Assembly (NCBI GenBank): GCA_016214285.1
Contig: JACROV010000077.1
Span: 1,617 to 65,616, forward strand
Reading direction: 5' to 3'
Length of the DNA: 64,000 bases
Source of the DNA: Candidatus Omnitrophota bacterium
Lineage (GTDB): Bacteria > Omnitrophota > Gorgyraeia > Zapsychrales > Zapsychraceae
Translations under genes and position numbers: made by a program
Notes under the pieces: model-generated
The model's database searches: none
What the model saw: the letters and a program-made list of their open reading frames with translations, nothing else
What the model was told of the DNA's origin: nothing
Shown here: positions 24,901 to 53,337 of the stretch, in pieces
How positions within the stretch are numbered: position 1 is the first letter of the stretch
Layout: each line of letters starts with the position of its first letter

Positions 24901-24973
24901 GCTGGCGTAGCTCAGTTGGTAGAGCAGCGGTTTTGTAAACCGCGGGTCGGGGGTTCGATTCCTCTCGCCAGCT
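24901..24973 (+). tRNA. tRNA-Thr (anticodon UGU)
   Basis: The cloverleaf was read by hand. Acceptor is GCTGGCG/CGCCAGC. D-arm is TAGCTCAGTTGGTAGAGCA. Anticodon stem is GCGGT/ACCGC with loop TT-TGT-AA. T-arm is GGGGG-TTCGATT-CCTCT. CCA is not encoded. Confidence 0.93.
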
Positions 24974-25071
24974 TTAATTGTTTCATGTGTAAAGTGTTAT
25001 GTGTCATGCCGGAAGAGGCAGAACTTTGCTTTTGCATAACACATAAAACATGACACATAATACGGATTTTC

Positions 25072-25157
25072 GGGCAGATACCCAAGTGGTCAACGGGGAC
25101 AGACTGTAAATCTGTTGCGCTTGCGCTTCGAGGGTTCGAATCCTTCTCTGCCCACCA
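25072..25157 (+). tRNA. tRNA-Tyr (anticodon GUA), long variable arm, CCA encoded
   Basis: Acceptor is GGGCAGA/TCTGCCC. Anticodon stem is ACAGA/TCTGT with loop CT-GTA-AA. The variable-arm hairpin is GCGC-TT-GCGC. T-arm is GAGGG-TTCGAAT-CCTTC. The 3' end is ACCA. Confidence 0.93.
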
Positions 25158-25324
25158 CTTGACTTTCCATAATATAGTTTCAGAGAAAGTCAAGTGTTGT
25201 CCCGAGTGGCTTTCTTTGAGTTTGATGCCACGAGGGATGATGATTTTGTCCCTCGCTTCTGATTGTCACCGATGGAAGCTCGGGACGTTTGAATTTTGAT
25301 AATAAAATTGAGGTAAATTCAAAC

Positions 25325-25395
25325 GCGGGCGTAGTTCAATGGTAGAACACCAGCCTTCCAAGCTGGATACGTGAGTTCGATTCTCATCGCCCGCT
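25325..25395 (+). tRNA. tRNA-Gly (anticodon UCC)
   Basis: Acceptor is GCGGGCG/CGCCCGC. D-arm is TAGTTCAATGGTAGAACA. Anticodon stem is CCAGC/GCTGG with loop CT-TCC-AA. T-arm is GTGAG-TTCGATT-CTCAT. Confidence 0.93.
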
Positions 25396-43952: not shown

Positions 43953-44162
43953 ATGAACGAAGCAAAGCTGCGAATGGTCTTGCGCTGGACCCACATCATC
44001 CTTGGCCTGGTGATCGTGTGTTATATTTATTCGCCGTGGGCAACGTTCGTGTCTTTCCAGGTCATTGTTAAGTTTGTCATCGTGCCCGTTATTGTTGTGA
44101 CAGGAATTTGGATATGGAAATTCACGGCTTTTAACAAGTTGCTTAAGATAAAACATCGGTGA
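43953..44162 (+). CDS. Small hypothetical membrane protein (2 TM)
   Basis: This 69-aa ORF has two clear hydrophobic helices, lies on the same strand as its neighbours and ends at the pckA upstream region. There is no homology evidence. Confidence 0.35.
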
Positions 44163-44197
44163 AACTCTCATCTCAAATAAGCTTTAAGGACGCGAAT

Positions 44198-45844
44198 ATG
44201 AAAACAGAGAGTTTAAATATTCCAGTGATCAGCGAACACCTGGCGTCGGTTGGCGTGAAGGATTGCCCTGCGATTCTTTGCAACTTGACCTATGATGAAC
44301 TTTTTACGCGCGAAACAGATCCTTCGCTGGATGGATACGAGCGTGGCATCGTCGCGGAGTCCGGTGCCGTGGCCGTGGATACGGGAAAATTCACGGGGCG
44401 CTCTCCGAAAGACAAATATATCGTTGAGGATGACCGGACGCGCGATACGGTCTGGTGGCAGACCGGGGAAACCGGCAGTTCGGATAATAAACGACTTTCG
44501 CCGCAGGTCTGGCAGCATCTCAAAAACATCGCGGCCGGTCAGTTGAGCGGGAAAAAGATCTATGTGATGGACGGCTTTTGTGGCGCGAACCCGCAAACGC
44601 GATTGCGGATCCGGCTGGTGACCGAACTGGCCTGGATGGCGCACTTTTTTAAAAATATGTTCATCCGGCCCACCGGCCAGGAATTAGAAGATTTTAAGCC
44701 GGACTGGACGATCCTCAATGCGTGCAAGGCCGCCAATCCGGACTGCGCCAAATTGAATATGCGCTCGGAAGCTTTTGTCGCCTTCAACATGACGGAACAG
44801 ATGATCGTCATTGGCGGAACGTGGTATGGAGGAGAGATCAAAAAAGGGGTCTTTTCCGTTATGAACTATGTTTTGCCGCTCAAGGATATCGGATCGTTCC
44901 ATTGTTCGGCGAATATGGGCAAATCCGGCGACACGGCGCTTTTTTTTGGCCTTTCCGGGACCGGCAAAACCACGCTTTCGGCAGACCCCAAGCGGTTGTT
45001 GATCGGTGATGATGAGCATGGGTGGGACGATGAAGGGGTGTTCAATCTTGAAGGCGGTTGTTACGCCAAATGTATTAATCTCACTTTGGAACGAGAGCCG
45101 GATATTTATCGCGCCATCCGGCGCAACGCCTTGCTGGAAAATGTGGATATCACGAAAGACGGCAAGGTTGATTTTGCATCTAAGAAAAAAACGGAAAATA
45201 CGCGCGTTTCCTATCCGATCGACCATATCCGGCAAATCGTCAAACCGGTTTCCAAGGGAGGACATCCGAAAAAGATTATTTTTTTGACCTGTGACGCGTA
45301 TGGCGTTCTGCCGCCGGTCGCCAAATTAACCAAAGAGCAAGGAATGTACCATTACTTGAGCGGGTACACGGCCAAGATCGCGGGAACGGAGCTCGGTGTC
45401 ACTGAACCCAGAGCGGCATTTTCCGCCTGCTTCGGCCAGGCGTTTTTAATGCTGCATCCGACAAAATACGCGGATATTTTAGGACAGAAAATTGATCAAC
45501 ATGGAGCGTCTATCTATCTTATCAATACCGGATGGGTGGGAGGAAAATACGGGGTTGGCAAACGGATATCCCTTGAAGCCAATCGCCGCATTATTGATGC
45601 GATTTTGAGCGGCCAGCTTGACCAGGGCAAATTTACCGTACTGCCGATATTTAATTTGTATATTCCCGCGCAAATTACCGGAGTTGACCCGCAGATTTTT
45701 AACCCGCGAAATTCATGGAAAGATAAGGCTGACTACGACCAAACGGCGCGCAAACTCGCGGAAATGTTTATCGCGAATTTTAAAAAATTTGAAGATACTC
45801 CGAAAGGGAAATCCCTGGCTGCGGCCGGACCTCGATTACCGTAA
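44198..45844 (+). CDS. pckA: Phosphoenolpyruvate carboxykinase (ATP)
   Basis: [11 protein letters not shown], the kinase-1a motif [26 protein letters not shown] and NTGWVGG are present. I prefer the ATG at 44198 (MKTESL) over the GTG at 44159. Confidence 0.95.
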
Positions 45845-45858
45845 TCTAAATAACGCCT

Positions 45859-46485
45859 ATGTCTCGACGATCCAAATTGCGCGTTACGATTCTTATTGTT
45901 GCCGTTAGCGTCACCGTTGCCCTGGCGGTAAAGTTTTTTTTAGGGCTCACGCCGCGCGATACGCGTTTTCCCGATGAGATGCGGGCAAAGGGAAATAAGA
46001 ACGCTCCGATCCGTATCACCGAATTTATCGACCTGGAATGTCCCGCCTGCGCCCGCGGGGCCGAATATCTGGCCCGGATGATGGCCATGCACCCTGAGGC
46101 GATCCGGTTGGATCTTAAATACTTTCCGTTGCCCGGTCACCGCCATGGTTTTTCAGCGGCCCGCTATACTGAATGCGCTGCCCGGCAGGGGAGATTCTGG
46201 CCGTTCCATGACGCGTTGCTCTCGCGTCAGGCCAATTGGAGCCGCTTGCTGGACGCGACTCCGGCCTTCGCGCTTATTGCTCAAGAGGTCGCCATCGATA
46301 AAGACAAATTGAGCGCGTGTCTGAACGATAAATCCGTTGATGCCCTCATTCAGCAGAGCCGTCTGGAAGGGGCGCGGCGCGGGGTCAGGAGCACTCCGAC
46401 GTATTACGTGAACGGGAAGATGGTCGTCGGCATGCAATCTCTGGAGTCCGAACTTGAACGATTGCTTTCGGAAATTAAAAAATAG
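45859..46485 (+). CDS. DsbA-family thiol:disulfide oxidoreductase, membrane-anchored or exported
   Basis: There is an N-terminal hydrophobic anchor. The active site is LECPACA (CPAC). The thioredoxin-fold C-terminus is GVRSTPTYYVNG. Confidence 0.85.
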   Translation: MSRRSKLRVTILIVAVSVTVALAVKFFLGLTPRDTRFPDEMRAKGNKNAPIRITEFIDLECPACARGAEYLARMMAMHPEAIRLDLKYFPLPGHRHGFSAARYTECAARQGRFWPFHDALLSRQANWSRLLDATPAFALIAQEVAIDKDKLSACLNDKSVDALIQQSRLEGARRGVRSTPTYYVNGKMVVGMQSLESELERLLSEIKK

Positions 46486-46933
46486 CCGATATCCATTGTT
46501 ACGGATGGTCATCGGCGGCATTTTTGTCGTTTCCGGCTTTGAAAAGCTCATCGGGCCATACCAGAATTTTCTTTATGTCATCCAGAATCATTCCTTTTTA
46601 CCACTCTTTCTGGCCGAGTTCGTTGCCCGCGTCTTACCCTGGATCGAATTTTGTCTGGGGATATTCCTTGTCTTGGGTCTTTGGCTCAGATGGACGTTGC
46701 GCGCGGTAATGGCGTTGTTGTTAATGTTCATGGCCGTTGTCATTCAGGCGCTTATTCGTAACTTGCCGATTGGGGAATGCGGTTGTTTCGGCGCGTTGAT
46801 CTCGTTTCCCCTGCCGGTCATCCTGGCATTCGACACAACGATCTTTGTTCTTGCCTGGGTCCTTTCGTTTCGAAGGAAGGAAGCAGAATGTTGCAGTATG
46901 GACAGGTATTTGGCGCAGAATGAAAACGCATGA
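46454..46933 (+). CDS. MauE/DoxX-family membrane protein
   Basis: There are four TM helices, LLRMVIGGIFVVSGFEKL and a GECGCFG cysteine motif typical of MauE-like proteins. It overlaps the dsbA-like gene end; the real start may be the Met in LRMVIGG. Confidence 0.72.
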   Translation: MNDCFRKLKNSRYPLLRMVIGGIFVVSGFEKLIGPYQNFLYVIQNHSFLPLFLAEFVARVLPWIEFCLGIFLVLGLWLRWTLRAVMALLLMFMAVVIQALIRNLPIGECGCFGALISFPLPVILAFDTTIFVLAWVLSFRRKEAECCSMDRYLAQNENA

Positions 46934-48402
46934 TCCGCATTTTTACCGTCATTTTGTTTGTGACCTTTAGTTTCTTTCCGATGGCCCACGCCGACACAAA
47001 GATCAAACGTCCCAATGTCAGCGGCCAGTTTTACACGGCCGAGCCGCGGGAGTTGTCCGCGCAGATCGGGGAATTTTTTCAGCGGGCGGATGTCACGCCT
47101 GCGGACCGGCACATCGATATTGTGATCGCCCCGCATGCCGGGTACATGTATTCCGGGGCGGTCGCCGCGTACGGCTTTAAGGCCGCCAGCCGCAATAAAT
47201 ACACCACGGTTGTTATTTTGGCGCCCAGCCATTATTCCGGGTTTGACGGCATTTCCGTTGGCCAGCAGGACGGATTCCAAACGCCGCTAGGCATCGTCAA
47301 TGTCGATCAGGAATTTGCGAAGCAGCTTATTGCGGAAAACGAAAAATTTTACTTCGCTCCGGAACCCTTTGAGCGAGAGCACTCCCTTGAGGTTGAAATT
47401 CCGTTTTTGCAGAAAATATTTACCAATTTTAAAATTGTTCCTGTGATCATGGGACAACCTGGTTTCGTACTGTTGGAGAAATTTGCCGCCAGTCTAAATA
47501 AAATTATCGGTGAACGCAAGGATGTCCTGATCGTTGTCAGCACGGATCTCTCGCATTATCATCCAGATGTCAAGGCGAGAACGATGGACGCGCTCGCGAT
47601 CAAGGCGATCACTTCCTTTGATGCTAAAGCGGTTTGGGAAGGATGCCAACGGCGCAGCGCCATGGAGATGTGCGGATTTGTGCCAACGACCGCGGCGCTT
47701 TTGTACGCGCGCCAGCGCGGACTCACGCACGCGCAGATGTTGCGCTATGCCAATTCGGGTGATGTGACTGGAGACCGGAATAGCGTCGTTGGGTATACAT
47801 CGATCATTATTTATGGCGATGCGCAAAAAGATGAAGATAAAGATGCTTTAACTCCGGCGCAAAAGAAGCGCCTTCTTGACATTGCCCGGCAGACAATGGA
47901 TGAATACGTGCGCACGGGTAAGACCCTTGAGTTTCTGGAGACTGACCCACGTTTATTGCGGGAGGAAGGAGCCTTTGCAACGATCCATAAACAGGGGCGA
48001 TTGCGCGGGTGTATCGGCAATATCCTGGGGCGTGGGCCGCTGTGCCAAACGGTGCGGGATATGGCGATTGCCGCTGCCGCCAAAGATCCGCGTTTTGATC
48101 CTGTCCAGGCGCAAGAGCTGAAGGACCTGGATATCGAAGTTTCGGTATTGTCAAAGCCGCGTACGATCAAAAATGCCGATGAGATCATTTTAGGGAAACA
48201 TGGCGTGATCGTCAGTCAGGGGCCGGGGCACCAGGGAGTTTTTCTGCCGCAGGTCGCCACCGAAACGGGATGGTCGAAAGAGGAGTTCCTGAACCAGCTG
48301 TGCGCGCAAAAAGCCGGCCTTGCCCCGGATGCCTGGAAAGATCCAAAAACAAAGATCGAGATCTTCACGGCGCAGGTCTTTGGCGAAAAAGACGTCCAAT
48401 AG
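46930..48402 (+). CDS. Fusion of Memo-like (AmmeMemoRadiSam system protein B) and AMMECR1 (protein A) domains, with a signal-peptide-like N-terminus
   Basis: The Memo half has SGQFY, IAPHAGYMYSGAVAAYGF, VILAPSH and STDLSHYH. The AMMECR1 half has GAFATIHKQGRLRGCIGNI, DPRF and GVFLPQV. The N-terminus MIRIFTVILFVTFSFFPMAHA|D resembles a Sec signal. The start overlaps the upstream stop (ATGA). Confidence 0.87.
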   Translation: MIRIFTVILFVTFSFFPMAHADTKIKRPNVSGQFYTAEPRELSAQIGEFFQRADVTPADRHIDIVIAPHAGYMYSGAVAAYGFKAASRNKYTTVVILAPSHYSGFDGISVGQQDGFQTPLGIVNVDQEFAKQLIAENEKFYFAPEPFEREHSLEVEIPFLQKIFTNFKIVPVIMGQPGFVLLEKFAASLNKIIGERKDVLIVVSTDLSHYHPDVKARTMDALAIKAITSFDAKAVWEGCQRRSAMEMCGFVPTTAALLYARQRGLTHAQMLRYANSGDVTGDRNSVVGYTSIIIYGDAQKDEDKDALTPAQKKRLLDIARQTMDEYVRTGKTLEFLETDPRLLREEGAFATIHKQGRLRGCIGNILGRGPLCQTVRDMAIAAAAKDPRFDPVQAQELKDLDIEVSVLSKPRTIKNADEIILGKHGVIVSQGPGHQGVFLPQVATETGWSKEEFLNQLCAQKAGLAPDAWKDPKTKIEIFTAQVFGEKDVQ

Positions 48403-48672
48403 AGAATGGAGTTATAACCTCCAACAGGATATTTAAAAGCCGAATTGGCCGCGCGCTATTGATCGTTGCCGGTGTTTGCCTTTGGCTGTATTTTGTCTGC
48501 CGATTCCCCGCCGTAAGGTTATTCACGCTTCTTGTTCCGCCCCTGCGAGAGCAACGCTTGTTTTTGTTAGCAGAAACGTAAAAATAGTGGAGAAAACGCT
48601 GGAACGTCAGGAAATGCCTGTGTTACAATGCCATTATATTAGTATAATTTTATTTATTAGTTGACCTTCTTT

Positions 48673-51600
48673 ATGCGAAAATTAAAACAAGAACAAATTC
48701 CCCGGATCAAAATTCGCCGGGTGATACTCTTTTTTATTTTTTGTGGATACTCCTGCCTATTTTCCCACTCCGTAGTCGGAGCTGATACAGGGAAAAAGAT
48801 TAAAACTCATCCCAACACGGTCCCAAATTTCCTGCGGAGCACCGAAGATTTAAAAGCGAAAGCTGAAGCATATAATAAGGAGGCCATCGCTTTGTTCGAA
48901 GAAGGTCGTTACGCCGAAGCCCAAGAATTGTGGGAAAAGGCCATTAAGCTCATGGAGCATCCCCTGGCCCGGCACATCGATTTTGAAGCAGTGAGTGAGG
49001 AACAACCATTTGTCGAAGTTCCGGAATTTCCGGCCACCAACGGTGAATCGCTGGAAGCTTCGCCGATCGCCGAGCAGTATCAAGCGGGACTGGCGTTGCT
49101 GGAACAGAAGGAATATGGCGAGGCCAGAAAAATATTTCAGGAAATCGACGCCACGCAGCCCGGTTACCGAAATACAAAGAGATATTTGATCGTGACCGAT
49201 GAGTTGTTGCGCGAGGAAGATCTGTCAGGTGAACAAGGGCAGATGAGTGATGAAGGTATCGTTAAGATCACGGCGGATCAAGAGGAGCCCCCTGAAATAG
49301 CACCGGAACCCCAAGGCGTGGATGCCGAACCGGAATTTGATCGCCGCGGGGAAGAAACGCGATGGGAAGAGGCTGTGAGTGCGGCGGAGCAAAAGTTGTT
49401 GGATCAGATCGCGGAAAAGGTCGAACCGGTCTATCAAAGAGCGCTTCAGCAATATAAAAATAAGGATTATACCGAAGCGCGGCGTAGTTTTGAAGAGGTG
49501 CAGGTCCTTTCTCCCGATTATAAATTGACGGCAAAATATTTGGACGGCATCGATGATGACATTCTCTACGCCCGGCAACAGAAAGAAGAGGAGCAGCGGC
49601 TGGCCGAAGAGCGCTCGCGGCGGCAGGATGAATTGGAGTTTCGAAAGACCATCGCGGCGAAGGAAGCGGCTTATCGAAAAGAATTGACGGGCCAAGCGGA
49701 GCAAATTTATCAACAAGCCATCGAAGATTTCAAGAACAGAAGGTTCGAGGAAGCGGAGGATAATTTTCGTAAAGTTGAGACCATGGCCTCCGGATATAAG
49801 TTGACCGGCAAATATTTGGAACGCATTCAAGATGCCCACAATGATGAGGCGCGCTTGCAGGCGGAAGAAGATTCGCGGCGACAGGCGCTTATGCAGCACA
49901 ACGAAGAGGAAGACATGAAGCGTACGATCGCGGAGAGCGAACGGATGCGTCAGCAAGGATTGCGCGAAAAGGCCGAGGATATTTACCAAAAAGCCAGGAC
50001 CGATTATGGCCAGGGAGAAATAGAAAAAGCCCGTGCCGGTTTTGGCGAAGTCGAGCAAATTCTGCCCGGGTATCGTTCTGCGCGCAAATACCTGGCTCTT
50101 ATTGATGATATGGCGAGTGAACAAAAACTGGGATTGAAAGTATCTTCTCAATCTGAAGTGGCAACAGCTTTAACGGAAGAAGCGAAAAGAGCGGTTGTGC
50201 CGGCGTCACGCAAGCGCTTGGAGGCAGAGGAACTTTATCAGCAGGCAAAGGAATCATACAAAAAGCGCGAGTTTGTTAAGGCGAAAGAGCTTTTTGAGAA
50301 GGTGAATACTGTGGTCAGGGACTACCAGGCCACGGAAAAATTTTTGGCAAGGATCGATTCAGATATACAACAGGAAGCGCGCTATCAGCAGGATCTTCAG
50401 CGAAGAGACGCGCAGCGCAGGCGCGGGGAGGAGGAAAAGGCGCTTGAGCAAAAACGCGCGGCGGCGAAAGCGGCCGCGGTTCGACGCCGTCAGGAAACGC
50501 GCGAATTGAAAGAAACGGCCGCGCGTATCAAAAATGATCGCGATAAAATGGTTACCGACAAGATTCAAGAGCTCTACCGGGAGGCGGAATCCGATTATAC
50601 GCACGGTCTTTATGCCTTGGCCAGGGAGCGTTTTAATGAAGTGCAGCGCATTGCCCCCGGATACAGATCCACGAAGGAATATTTGGGGAATATCGCGTAC
50701 GCGTATGGTAGCGAGGCGGCGGTTGAAACGACACCGCTTCCATTGCACCTTGAGCAGGAAGTATCGCCGGTGCTTGCACCAGCCTCAGTTCCGGTAGTTC
50801 AGGAGAAGATTGTCATCCCTGCTGATGAAATTACAACGCCAAAAGTGGCGGAGCCCGATGATGAGGTCTCTGCGGACTATGACACGGGCATCCTTTTATT
50901 TAAGCGAAAACAATACGTTCGCGCCCGTGAGAAGCTCGATCACGTTGTTCAGGCGGCTCCCGGTTATAAATCAACGTCTGAATATTTGAGCCGTATCGAT
51001 TCTCGGTTGCAAGAAGAACAACAACGACAGCTCGAAAAGCAACAGCAGGCTTTGGCGCGTGCCATCCGCAAGGAAAAGAAGGCTAAGAAAGCTGTACCTC
51101 CCGAGGTTGTTCAACAGACGGTCAGCGAAGCGCAAAAGCCGGAGCCCGAGGGGATGGTAGCGGCGCCGGTCGAGGTCATTGCGAAAGAGGATCCGGACAG
51201 AGAACTTCATGTGAAGGCGCAGGAACTGTTCCAGGAGGCGGAGCGGTTATACGCGTCCCAGCAATACGTTCGCGCCCGTGAGAAATTTTTGGAAATCGAA
51301 GGTCTGGTTCCAGGATATAAATCAACCGCGAAATATCTGGCGTGGATCGACAGGGATCTGCTTGAGGAACAGAAAAAAACACAGCGCACGAAACAAAAGC
51401 AAGAGAGGGAAGCCGCCAGCCGCGCCGCGAAGGAAAAGGCGGCGCAGGCGGTAGCCCAGAAAAAACAATTTAGAATACAACGGGAGGAAGAAAAAACGCA
51501 TGAACGGTTGTTAGCACAAACTGGAAAGAAATACGCGCAAGCCTTGGCCGCTTACGCGAAAAAAGATTTCACCAGCGCTAAACAGAAATTCGCCGAAGTG

Positions 51601-53337
51601 GAAAAACTTTCCGCGAATTTTAAGGAAACCGCGCAATATCTGAGCCGTATTGACGCGGATATCGCGGCCCAGAACCAAAAGCCCCAAGAGGTGGGCGCGG
51701 CCCCGATTTATGTCCAGCCGCAGGGTATCGCAGCAAAGGAACAGACCCGCAAAAAAGCCGAAGAGCTTTTTCGAGAGGCAGTACGATTGTACGCGTCTCA
51801 GAAATTTGTTCCTGCCCGCGAAAAATTCCTGGAAGTCGATGGCCTTGTGCCGGACTACAAATCAGCTAGAAAATATTTGATACGGATCGACCAGTCCATG
51901 CTGGAGGAACAGAAGAAGTCCCGGCGCGCGGAAGAAAAGCAAGAACGAGAAGCCGCCAGCCGCGCCGCGAAGGAAAAAACGGCGGAGAAAATGGCCGAGA
52001 AAAATCAGCTAAATATTCAAAAAGCGGAGGAAAAGAAACGCGCGCGTTTATTAGCGCAGGCTGAAAAGAAATACGCGCAAGCCCTGGCCGCTTACGCGAA
52101 AAAAGATTTCATCAGCGCTAAACAGAAATTCGCCGGAGTGGAAAAACTTTCCGCGAATTTTAAGGAAACCACGCAATATCTGAGCCGTATTGACGCGGAT
52201 ATCGCGGCCCAGAACCAAAAGCCCCAAGAGGTGGGCGCGGCCCCGATTTATGTCCAGCCGCAGGGTATCGCAGCAAAGGAGCAGACCCGCAAAAAAGCCG
52301 GAGAGCTTTTTCGAGAGGCAGTACGATTGTACGCGTCTCAGAAATTTGTTCCTGCCCGTGAGAAATTTCAGGAAGTCGAGAAGTTGGTGCTGGGATATAA
52401 AACAACGGGAAAATATATTGCATTGACCGACCGGGCTATTTTGCGACAGCAGGAGGAAGGATCGCAGGCAAAAAAAACTCACGATGCGCGCAACGCCCGT
52501 CTTGAAGCGGACGCGCAAAAGGTTCGTGAAAAGGCAGAACAGGTCAATCAGGCGAGGGAAAACAAGCAAGTAAAGCAGCTTATTTCGCGGATGGAAAAAG
52601 GGGCGGTCACGGCGGGCAATCGAGGTCAATGGGGTGCCGCAGCGCAGAAATTATCCCGCGTGGAAGATCTTTTAAAGGGCGAGTCTGTGAGCGCGGCTGA
52701 TAAAGAGCAAACCGCGCGCCGTCTTGTCAGTTTGCGGGAACGCATTGTGACTGGACGAGGGGAAGTGCAACAACGGCAGTTGGCGAAAGAACAGGAAATA
52801 AAACAAAGGCAAGATGCGCGCGCTGCCCTTTTGGAAGCGGATGAGCAAAGGGAACGTGAAAGGGTTGAAAAAGCCCGTCAAGAGAATGAACGAAAACAGC
52901 AGGCGCGCGCTAAACGGGTTCCTGCCGCCGCGCCTGCAGTGAAATCGGCCTGGGTCGACCCGCCTGATTTCAACGCTTTTGAACTCACCGACGATGTCGG
53001 GGTATTACGTAGGCAATATGCCAAGATCCAAAAGCAAAGAAAAGGCGTCCAGGCCGCCATCCGGCTCAGGCTTGATCAAACTTATGCCCGGGCCGTTCGA
53101 TTGTATAATCAAGGATATTATGCGGGCGCAAGAAATTTGTTCCAGGAAATAGCCGAAATACAATCGTCATTTAAGGGAACCAAAAACTATCTTGCTCAAA
53201 TCGATCAAAAGCTTGCGAAATTGCCGGCATCCGCTATTATGCCGGGCAAGGGGATCGAAGCCCCGTCGGTATATGTCAAGCCGCGAGCGCGGGTCGTCAC
53301 CGACGCGCTTGATAGTCTAGAGGCGCCGCGGCAATGA
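48673..53337 (+). CDS. Giant (1554 aa) exported or anchored modular repeat protein: about 14 TPR-like modules of about 48 aa separated by E/K/R/Q-rich coiled-coil linkers
   Basis: This is a single uninterrupted ORF with an N-terminal hydrophobic segment VILFFIFCGYSCLFSHSVVGA. The recurring module is (A/E)xx(Y/F)xxAxxx(Y/F)xxxx(Y/F)xxAxxxFxE(V/I)xxxxP(G/D)Y(K/R)x(T/A)xxYLxxID. I prefer the ATG at 48673 to the TTG at 48661. Confidence 0.85.
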   Translation: MRKLKQEQIPRIKIRRVILFFIFCGYSCLFSHSVVGADTGKKIKTHPNTVPNFLRSTEDLKAKAEAYNKEAIALFEEGRYAEAQELWEKAIKLMEHPLARHIDFEAVSEEQPFVEVPEFPATNGESLEASPIAEQYQAGLALLEQKEYGEARKIFQEIDATQPGYRNTKRYLIVTDELLREEDLSGEQGQMSDEGIVKITADQEEPPEIAPEPQGVDAEPEFDRRGEETRWEEAVSAAEQKLLDQIAEKVEPVYQRALQQYKNKDYTEARRSFEEVQVLSPDYKLTAKYLDGIDDDILYARQQKEEEQRLAEERSRRQDELEFRKTIAAKEAAYRKELTGQAEQIYQQAIEDFKNRRFEEAEDNFRKVETMASGYKLTGKYLERIQDAHNDEARLQAEEDSRRQALMQHNEEEDMKRTIAESERMRQQGLREKAEDIYQKARTDYGQGEIEKARAGFGEVEQILPGYRSARKYLALIDDMASEQKLGLKVSSQSEVATALTEEAKRAVVPASRKRLEAEELYQQAKESYKKREFVKAKELFEKVNTVVRDYQATEKFLARIDSDIQQEARYQQDLQRRDAQRRRGEEEKALEQKRAAAKAAAVRRRQETRELKETAARIKNDRDKMVTDKIQELYREAESDYTHGLYALARERFNEVQRIAPGYRSTKEYLGNIAYAYGSEAAVETTPLPLHLEQEVSPVLAPASVPVVQEKIVIPADEITTPKVAEPDDEVSADYDTGILLFKRKQYVRAREKLDHVVQAAPGYKSTSEYLSRIDSRLQEEQQRQLEKQQQALARAIRKEKKAKKAVPPEVVQQTVSEAQKPEPEGMVAAPVEVIAKEDPDRELHVKAQELFQEAERLYASQQYVRAREKFLEIEGLVPGYKSTAKYLAWIDRDLLEEQKKTQRTKQKQEREAASRAAKEKAAQAVAQKKQFRIQREEEKTHERLLAQTGKKYAQALAAYAKKDFTSAKQKFAEVEKLSANFKETAQYLSRIDADIAAQNQKPQEVGAAPIYVQPQGIAAKEQTRKKAEELFREAVRLYASQKFVPAREKFLEVDGLVPDYKSARKYLIRIDQSMLEEQKKSRRAEEKQEREAASRAAKEKTAEKMAEKNQLNIQKAEEKKRARLLAQAEKKYAQALAAYAKKDFISAKQKFAGVEKLSANFKETTQYLSRIDADIAAQNQKPQEVGAAPIYVQPQGIAAKEQTRKKAGELFREAVRLYASQKFVPAREKFQEVEKLVLGYKTTGKYIALTDRAILRQQEEGSQAKKTHDARNARLEADAQKVREKAEQVNQARENKQVKQLISRMEKGAVTAGNRGQWGAAAQKLSRVEDLLKGESVSAADKEQTARRLVSLRERIVTGRGEVQQRQLAKEQEIKQRQDARAALLEADEQRERERVEKARQENERKQQARAKRVPAAAPAVKSAWVDPPDFNAFELTDDVGVLRRQYAKIQKQRKGVQAAIRLRLDQTYARAVRLYNQGYYAGARNLFQEIAEIQSSFKGTKNYLAQIDQKLAKLPASAIMPGKGIEAPSVYVKPRARVVTDALDSLEAPRQ
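51223..52400 (+). repeat. In-frame tandem duplication, period exactly 540 bp (180 aa), about 2.2 copies, inside the giant gene
   Basis: Landmarks recur at +540. The E-L-F codons lie at 51223, 51763 and 52303. GAAGCCGCCAGCCGCGCCGCGAAGGAAAA occurs at about 51410 and about 51950. AAGAAATACGCGCAAGCC occurs at 51526 and 52066. The stretch 51521-51830 versus 52061-52370 is nearly identical, with only a handful of substitutions. Confidence 0.9.

Follow-up and report, generated by a model that had tools for sequence, protein, structure and literature searches.

In the AmmeMemoRadiSam system, an AMMECR1 protein (component A, TIGR04335), a Memo protein (component B, TIGR04336) and a radical S-adenosylmethionine (SAM) enzyme (TIGR04337) belong together, and fusions of B with A are common. 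This prokaryotic three-gene system has been predicted to modify RNA bases in the cytoplasm, and the cysteine of the AMMECR1 motif RGChG has been predicted to be catalytic (Balaji and Aravind 2007, PMC2034487). The locus considered here lies in a stretch of 64,000 nucleotides from a Candidatus Omnitrophota bacterium (contig JACROV010000077.1, positions 1,617 to 65,616), called the window below. Three plus-strand genes of the window encode an anchored DsbA/MdbA/BdbD-like thiol-disulfide oxidoreductase (gene 1, 45859..46485), a four-helix membrane protein of the MauE/DoxX family (gene 2, 46454..46933) and the 490-aa precursor of a Memo-AMMECR1 fusion (gene 3, 46930..48402). As in AmmeMemoRadiSam, gene 3 has full-length B and A components with all the conserved motifs and the expected folds. 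Unlike the described system, it has a predicted secretory leader, it is flanked by DsbA and MauE genes, there is no radical SAM gene in the window or near the members of its clade, and the periplasmic location that the leader implies would be ill-suited to an RNA substrate.

Other described systems concern the two genes upstream of the fusion. In the DsbA-MauE pathway, which is analogous to DsbA-DsbB and to the actinobacterial MdbA-VKOR pair, E. coli dsbB mutants become motile again and regain PhoA activity when given MauE from either of two phyla, provided that MauE has its CXC motif, which is typically followed by F-G (Gonzalez et al., bioRxiv 10.64898/2026.03.05.709764). MauA occurs in only ~10% of the species that have MauE, and MauE has been proposed as the second most common disulfide generator (bioRxiv 10.64898/2026.03.05.709764). 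The window pair, known from sequence, resembles this pathway in the four predicted helices of gene 2, its CGC followed by F-G, the E-K in helix 1 and the adjacent DsbA-like gene; it differs in being locked in an operon with one putatively exported enzyme across a clade. With the mau cluster, in which MauD and MauE occur, the locus shares the Pfam MauE membership of gene 2. However, gene 1 is not MauD-like, there is no mauA, mauB or mauG gene nearby, and the organism is an Omnitrophota metagenome-assembled genome (MAG). The vertebrate vitamin K cycle (GGCX/HTTM carboxylase, VKOR and a thioredoxin-like partner) offers an analogy only, in that relatives of the window locus pair an HTTM protein, MauE and a thioredoxin-fold partner. 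Against this, the HTTM-DCC1 gene has been deleted from the window, MauE is not a VKOR homologue, and neither carboxylation nor the use of a quinone epoxide is part of the likeness.

The identity of gene 3 follows from its domain matches. The Memo domain (aa 28-292; 47011..47805) scores 222 bits with PF01875 and the AMMECR1 domain (aa 317-484; 47878..48381) 187 bits with PF01871, and the corresponding NCBIfam models are matched at 279 bits for TIGR04336 (cut-off 26) and 178 bits for TIGR04335 (cut-off 99). The motifs APHAGYMYSG, STDLSHYH and LRGCIGN are found at aa 67, 204 and 358. Across the homologues, the Memo metal-site residues H69, H101, D206, H209, H211 and C248 are invariant, as is the AMMECR1 motif R359-G360-C361-I362-G363. 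The AlphaFold2 model has two well-folded domains with a mean pLDDT of 91.3, and the best Foldseek matches are MEMO1 (7kq8, TM 0.82) and the archaeal AMMECR1 protein PH0010 (1vaj, TM 0.77). The fusion has 100% identity to a protein of a Candidatus Omnitrophica MAG. Each of the best 120 homologues is a B-A fusion, with a length of 468-540 aa, and Omnitrophota is the source of every one that carries a source name. For the neighbourhood comparisons described below, a set of 165 related loci was used, which later grew to about 170 (L001-L170).

Read from the ATG at 46930, the fusion opens with MIRIFTVILFVTFSFFPMAHA, followed by a predicted cut before D. In this leader, MIR would be the n-region, IFTVILFVTFSFF the h-region and PMAHA the c-region, and both the direct reading and the leaders of the homologues point to a Sec signal peptide of 21 aa (46930..46992, plus strand) that would be cleaved by signal peptidase I at AHA|D. 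In the AlphaFold2 model, residues 2-15 form a helix and residues 16-21 are disordered, with pLDDT below 50. The leaders of 117 close homologues were compared, and in 88 of them the same succession of a positive, a hydrophobic and a small-x-small region is found, the sequence drifting and the character being kept. The remaining 29 of the 117 are called leaderless, with their start placed at a conserved Met just short of the predicted cut. For the sole call of this kind that was inspected in the DNA, that of L167, the choice of start explains the missing leader, as there is an in-frame hydrophobic leader with its own ATG upstream. Where the start of the fusion is coupled to the stop of MauE, it always takes in the leader, through an ATGA overlap in four lineages and through an overlap of 29-38 nt in three. 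Met18 was considered as the main start of gene 3 and was rejected, since the coupled start includes the leader and L167 has its leader upstream, although a truly leaderless fusion within the clade, L008:7977-9434, shows that a start of this kind can evolve. There, MNMRSASFADD begins behind an AGGAGG Shine-Dalgarno sequence, with stop codons upstream. The L008 fusion is encoded on a 421-kb contig of a MAG labelled Smithellaceae, and it appears to be a case of secondary loss of export, possibly after horizontal transfer.

The leader of gene 3 is thus very likely real, and its product is predicted to be exported by Sec and cleaved at AHA|D. B-A fusions of other phyla have a lipobox in place of the Sec leader, for example LSGC, VPGC or FLVGC; these come from Bacteroidota, Nitrospirota, Latescibacterota, Anaerolineae, Myxococcota and one Altiarchaeota MAG.

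We now consider the pair of genes upstream. Gene 1 matches the Pfam families Thioredoxin_4 (PF13462, 80 bits, 3e-22) and DSBA (PF01323, 57 bits, 2.4e-15), with CPAC at aa 61-64 and a cis-Pro loop S-T-P at aa 178-180. It also has an N-terminal hydrophobic anchor, which would place the protein outside the cytoplasm. Its nearest solved structures are those of C. diphtheriae DsbA (4pwp/4pwo; E 7e-14, with 167 residues aligned with 4pwp) and BdbD (3eu3). CPAC is kept among the relatives of gene 1, with CPSC in L085. A MauD-like identity was also considered for gene 1 and was rejected, as the protein is closest to the anchored oxidases of the MdbA/BdbD type and the MauD models gave zero matches at E<=0.01. 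Gene 2 matches MauE (PF07291) with 77 bits and DoxX with 39 bits and has GECGCFG at aa 109. From its hydrophobic segments and the positive-inside rule, a topology of four helices can be proposed, with E-K in the first helix and IGECGCFGAL in the putative periplasmic loop that joins the third to the fourth. The motif CGC[FY]G is kept in all 9 MauE relatives that were compared. Because MauE of the CXC type can stand in for DsbB in E. coli, the two genes are best read, by analogy, as the equivalent of DsbA and DsbB, and not as helpers of a methylamine dehydrogenase. By homology to the tested MauE proteins, the electrons from gene 2 would flow to quinone.

An earlier note on this DNA had proposed identities for the three genes from the sequence, and most of them hold. 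The Memo-AMMECR1 fusion is borne out by its Pfam and NCBIfam matches and by every motif that had been quoted. The Sec-type signal at its start also stands, as a reading supported by the n-h-c leader kept in most homologues, and the comparison of N-termini favours the ATG at 46930 over Met18, at which the homologues do not uniformly begin. Gene 1 is indeed an anchored thioredoxin-fold protein with CPAC, and gene 2 a MauE/DoxX protein with four probable membrane helices and GECGCFG. The description of gene 1 as DsbA/MauD-like has to be halved: the DsbA part can be sharpened to DsbA/MdbA/BdbD-like, and the MauD part is dropped. With it goes the precedent drawn from MauD/MauE pairs as maturation helpers, now that gene 1 is found not to be MauD-like and CXC-type MauE has been reported as a generalist DsbB analogue.

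The linkage of the pair to the fusion, which the same note had seen in the window, is conserved across one Omnitrophota clade among the roughly 170 loci. The order DsbA-MauE-fusion is found at L001-3, L005, L006, L009, L085, L088 and L166-L170, with identities of the fusion down to 48%. The look-ups of genomic context returned the triad in 5 of 5 cases, three of which were begun from MauE matches, and at least 28 MauE homologues lie on a contig equal in size to one that bears a homologue of the fusion. A gene for PEPCK (ATP-dependent PEP carboxykinase) precedes the triad in most members of the clade, among them L001, L005, L006 and L167-L170, and the triad is kept despite a different upstream gene in L166, L009 and L088. 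In a neighbour-joining tree of the fusions, all linked loci fall into one clade, which is nested among Omnitrophota that have operons of a radical SAM gene, the fusion and a CcdA-like gene. This placement points to one swap of modules and to a secondary loss in each of L004 and L008.

Downstream of the fusion, most relatives have a gene for a membrane protein of ~200 aa (called U200 here), followed by one for an HTTM-DCC1 fusion. U200 has zero matches in Pfam and NCBIfam, and a literature search on HTTM, DCC1 and MauE gave nothing useful. At L167 (8512-11503), U200 and HTTM-DCC1 are replaced by a stand-alone DCC1-like gene, an unknown gene of 132 aa and a Thioredox_DsbH gene of 709 aa. In the window, DNA alignments to L001 show that a deletion of ~1.9 kb took the HTTM-DCC1 gene and the rest of the U200 gene, of which a decayed 5' remnant is left at 48425..48541 on the plus strand. 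From about 48581 on, in the intergenic stretch that precedes a TPR gene, the homology to L001 is back, leaving 48542-48580 between that point and the remnant.

With regard to the radical SAM partner, no CX3CX2C motif was found in the stop-to-stop open reading frames (ORFs) of at least 150 aa in the 64-kb window, which thus has no classical radical SAM gene, as had been stated earlier. Nor is there any radical SAM gene within 6-10 kb of the DsbA-MauE-linked fusions at any locus of the clade. When the best 120 Omnitrophota radical SAM matches were set against the best 120 fusion matches, no pair was found on contigs of equal size.

Elsewhere, TIGR04337 enzymes do adjoin fusions, with scores of 321-379 bits (cut-off 220). 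About 30 of these fusion-adjacent enzymes have leaders of the twin-arginine translocation (Tat) type, with RR/KR-x-F-[LI]-K, and one passes TIGR01409. These leaders were called by motif and checked by eye; a few PRARFW/CxxCH extensions were over-called as Tat, and the h-regions are weakly hydrophobic. Leaders such as DRRSFLKCALASGAALG are found at the N-termini of radical SAM enzymes next to signal-bearing fusions, and Bacteroidota use KR-x-F-[LI]-K. Twin-arginine-type leaders occur at L020, L026-L028, L050, L093, L099, L102-L104, L107, L112, L114, L115, L120, L124-L126, L128, L133, L152 and L158, and would imply a periplasmic radical SAM enzyme. A radical SAM partner tends to have a leader where the fusion has a signal (47/13 versus 1/9, Fisher p=6e-5). 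Sec for a metal enzyme and Tat for an Fe-S enzyme would be the expected division of labour.

There are variations on this arrangement. At L042, L044, L132, L136, L140 and L147, a CxxCH is found in an extension before the radical SAM domain, for example EGVRCLSCHAEDDG; this looks like a fused c-type haem module and could be an entry point for electrons. In place of a Tat leader, most TIGR04337 proteins of Omnitrophota (P0121-P0240, homologues of the L013 enzyme) have a hydrophobic one that resembles a Sec signal or a lipobox, for example MKNFFKLILGLFFLFGLIAAC, which is odd for an Fe-S enzyme. At L059, L065 (Prevotella), L096, L105, L109, L137 and L164, a lipobox- or signal-bearing fusion stands beside a leaderless radical SAM enzyme, and the partners would therefore occupy different compartments.

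Two other genes recur around the exported fusions. A polytopic membrane protein of ~720 aa with a central spermine/spermidine-synthase domain (PF01564) is encoded at 19 signal-bearing loci among the first 84 loci, from many phyla: L015, L018, L020, L022, L026-L028, L030, L038, L044, L045, L050, L053, L061, L063, L064, L066, L067 and L069. It scores below the cut-off on the NCBIfam model for fused MFS/spermidine synthase. In several sister Omnitrophota, a DsbD_2/CcdA-like gene follows the fusion.

The exported form in other phyla can thus be described as a TIGR04337 enzyme with a Tat or Sec leader, a B-A fusion with a signal or lipobox, and a polytopic spermidine-synthase-like protein, with or without a CcdA-like one. 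The window shares with it the putatively exported B-A fusion and the phylogenetic neighbourhood, the sister Omnitrophota being of this type. However, in the window clade the fusion has no radical SAM, spermidine-synthase-like or CcdA-like neighbour; its neighbours are instead DsbA, MauE, U200 and HTTM-DCC1. These comparisons suggest that export marks a widespread branch of AmmeMemoRadiSam, usually with a leader-bearing radical SAM partner, and that it is not peculiar to the window operon. No description of an exported AmmeMemoRadiSam system or of a periplasmic radical SAM enzyme was found in the searchable literature, and to that extent the module is undescribed, as had been proposed; some of the gene contexts may be covered by Burroughs et al. 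2019.

The reading that we prefer, and to which we give about an even chance, is that the locus is a clade-specific periplasmic redox module, in which the DsbA/MauE relay serves the exported fusion. The precursor of gene 3 would be exported by Sec and cut after AHA to give a soluble periplasmic enzyme of two domains, with a Memo metal site formed by His, His, Asp, His and Cys248, and with Cys361 as the invariant thiol of AMMECR1. Since gene 3 belongs to the exported branch of AmmeMemoRadiSam, it would most likely act on an envelope substrate, that is, a lipid, an isoprenoid, a quinone or an exported protein, and not on RNA. Work by Burroughs et al. from 2019 reportedly ties Memo to the modification of nucleotide bases and of aliphatic isoprenoids.

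In the relay itself, the anchored DsbA-like protein would draw electrons from periplasmic thiols through its CPAC, and MauE would hand them on to the membrane quinone pool through its CGC. Within the clade, the relay would have taken the place of two neighbours that the fusion has in the sister lineages, a radical SAM enzyme with a leader and a CcdA-like thiol transporter, and in most relatives it would be accompanied by U200 and HTTM-DCC1, the window genome keeping the three-gene core only. Because the relay has replaced the radical SAM and CcdA-like genes and comes with U200 and HTTM-DCC1, it may be taken as the oxidising partner of the exported fusion, in addition to any general disulfide formation. 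A functional coupling of the pair with the fusion is favoured by the timing, in that the pair arrived when the adjacent radical SAM and CcdA-like genes were lost, by the recurrence of thiol and quinone genes around exported fusions, and by the persistence of the triad where its flanks change.

The explanation that competes most strongly with this module is that genes 1 and 2 are a general oxidative-folding pair, standing beside the fusion only through an inherited compact block. We consider this quite plausible, if somewhat short of probable, and many of the points that weigh against our preferred reading are also points in its favour. The two MauE proteins that have been tested behave as generalists, replacing DsbB for unrelated E. 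coli substrates, and the proposal that MauE is the second most common disulfide generator suits such a role. The linkage to the fusion has, judging from the tree, a single evolutionary origin, and the block also keeps PEPCK, which is plainly unrelated, as well as the syntenic SPOR and AsmA genes; functional coupling is therefore something that we infer. Within the clade, L004 has no DsbA/MauE pair, and at L087 the pair is 3.2 kb away.

Gene spacing points in the same direction, as the genome is compact. Of the 56 ORFs of the window, 51 are on the plus strand. Among the 46 pairs of neighbours on the same strand, an overlap is seen in 13 (of 4 nt in 7 cases) and a gap of at most 20 nt in 27. Tight spacing and overlaps are thus normal in the window. 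The earlier note had linked the three ORFs by their overlaps. The ATGA at 46930-46933, where the stop of gene 2 meets the start of gene 3, is as described, whereas the overlap of genes 1 and 2 (46454-46485) hinges on a TTG start, which has GGAG 6 nt upstream; there is an alternative start at ATG 46505, and the public gene call on an identical Logan contig begins MauE there, giving 142 aa and no overlap with gene 1. A scan for promoters and terminators around the triad gave nothing above the shuffled background.

Cysteines were also compared, in 47 exported and 19 cytosolic fusions. No cysteine pair was found that sets the exported group apart; invariance is limited to C248 and C361, and C458 is as frequent in one group as in the other. 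Without such a pair, the fusion is not an obvious folding client of DsbA, the oxidising action of which might even be a danger to its two functional thiols. Finally, the TIGR04337 partner may be encoded elsewhere in the genome, and the call of export is itself an argument from sequence.

On the other side, a mere housekeeping role for the pair does not readily account for the survival of the triad through the upstream changes in L166, L009 and L088, for the finding that every placeable member of this MauE subfamily adjoins a fusion, or for the DCC1, HTTM-DCC1 and Thioredox_DsbH genes that cluster downstream. It also sits less easily with the CcdA-like gene in the same operon in the sister lineages and with the arrival of the pair coinciding with the disappearance of the adjacent radical SAM gene. 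The proposal of the earlier note, an undescribed periplasmic maturation module, survives in part. The predicted export, the clade-wide linkage and the missing radical SAM neighbour are supported, and what has to be given up is the MauD/MauE frame; the fusions also have no extra cysteine pair, and export is not specific to this operon.

A more far-reaching form of our preferred reading, which we regard as rather unlikely and put forward as speculation, is that the relay now acts as the oxidant in place of the radical SAM enzyme. Memo and AMMECR1 would then work in the periplasm, independently of any radical SAM enzyme, and modify an exported protein or an isoprenoid, quinone or lipid of the envelope, in a manner similar to the vitamin K cycle.

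Dedicated maturation in the style of MauD and MauE, in which the pair would form disulfides or cross-links in a specific periplasmic protein or cofactor and Memo-AMMECR1 would be the modifier or the client, is improbable. The MauE family membership of gene 2, the periplasmic location predicted for the fusion and the linkage kept within the clade would all fit it, but gene 1 is DsbA/MdbA-like and leaves the MauD models unmatched, the conserved neighbourhood has no mauA- or mauB-like gene and no cysteine-rich candidate client, MauA accompanies MauE in so few species, and the fusion has no extra cysteine pair.

Least probable of all is that the fusion is not exported, either because the leader is an uncleaved hydrophobic anchor that holds a cytoplasm-facing enzyme or because the true start is at Met18 and the protein is cytosolic: the Met conserved 4-8 residues before the predicted cut in the clade, at which gene callers start in 29 of the 117 homologues, the start that L008 does use there behind its AGGAGG with a stop codon upstream, and the want of a clear Shine-Dalgarno sequence at either start of gene 3 in the window are outweighed by an h-region of 13 residues, too short for a membrane span, with P-x-A-x-A next to it, by an N-terminal positive charge that predicts an outward C-terminus, by fusion lipoboxes in other phyla and Tat leaders and CxxCH in the partners that are sensible only outside the cytoplasm, and by an in-frame leader that is kept across more than 50% sequence divergence and is included in the coupled start.

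As to the surroundings, the PEPCK gene (44159..45844, plus strand; PF01293, 688 bits) ends 14 nt 5' of gene 1 and is probably context outside the module. The neighbours in the window are PEPCK, SPOR, OmpA-LysM, TPR and AsmA genes. The TPR gene (48661-53337) encodes a protein of 1558 aa with TPR and coiled-coil-like parts, the orthologues of which range from 746 to 1424 aa in the relatives. It contains three tandem units of 540 nt, starting at about 51223, 51763 and 52303, which are ~70% identical in DNA and ungapped, with protein segments that are near-identical in places. The sole RNA-family match in the window is a cluster of tRNA-Thr(TGT), tRNA-Tyr(GTA) and tRNA-Gly(TCC) at 24901-25395 on the plus strand. 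The GC skew is positive in 31 of the 32 2-kb bins of 1-64000; together with the extreme strand bias, this fits a single leading-strand replichore in a compact genome.

What is new here is an exported B-A fusion, by its predicted leader, that has no adjacent radical SAM gene and lies inside a DsbA/MauE module, to which HTTM-DCC1 belongs in the relatives. Of greater importance, perhaps, is the broader exported system. Memo and AMMECR1 have been kept from archaea to humans and have a connection with disease; if the exported branch is real, its substrate has to lie in the envelope, so that the reactions of the two proteins could be sought in a smaller space. For a radical SAM enzyme in the periplasm, there would also be the question of how it is supplied there with SAM and low-potential electrons. 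The clade of the window appears to dispense with an adjacent radical SAM enzyme and to gain a quinone-linked pair of thiol oxidases, and it is thereby a natural comparison set for the roles of the components. Should the pair be no more than housekeeping, the locus would still be a record, in Omnitrophota, of the disulfide pathway newly proposed for MauE. If the radical-SAM-independent pathway should prove true, it would open the chemistry of Memo and AMMECR1 to study by a tractable route that needs no oxygen.

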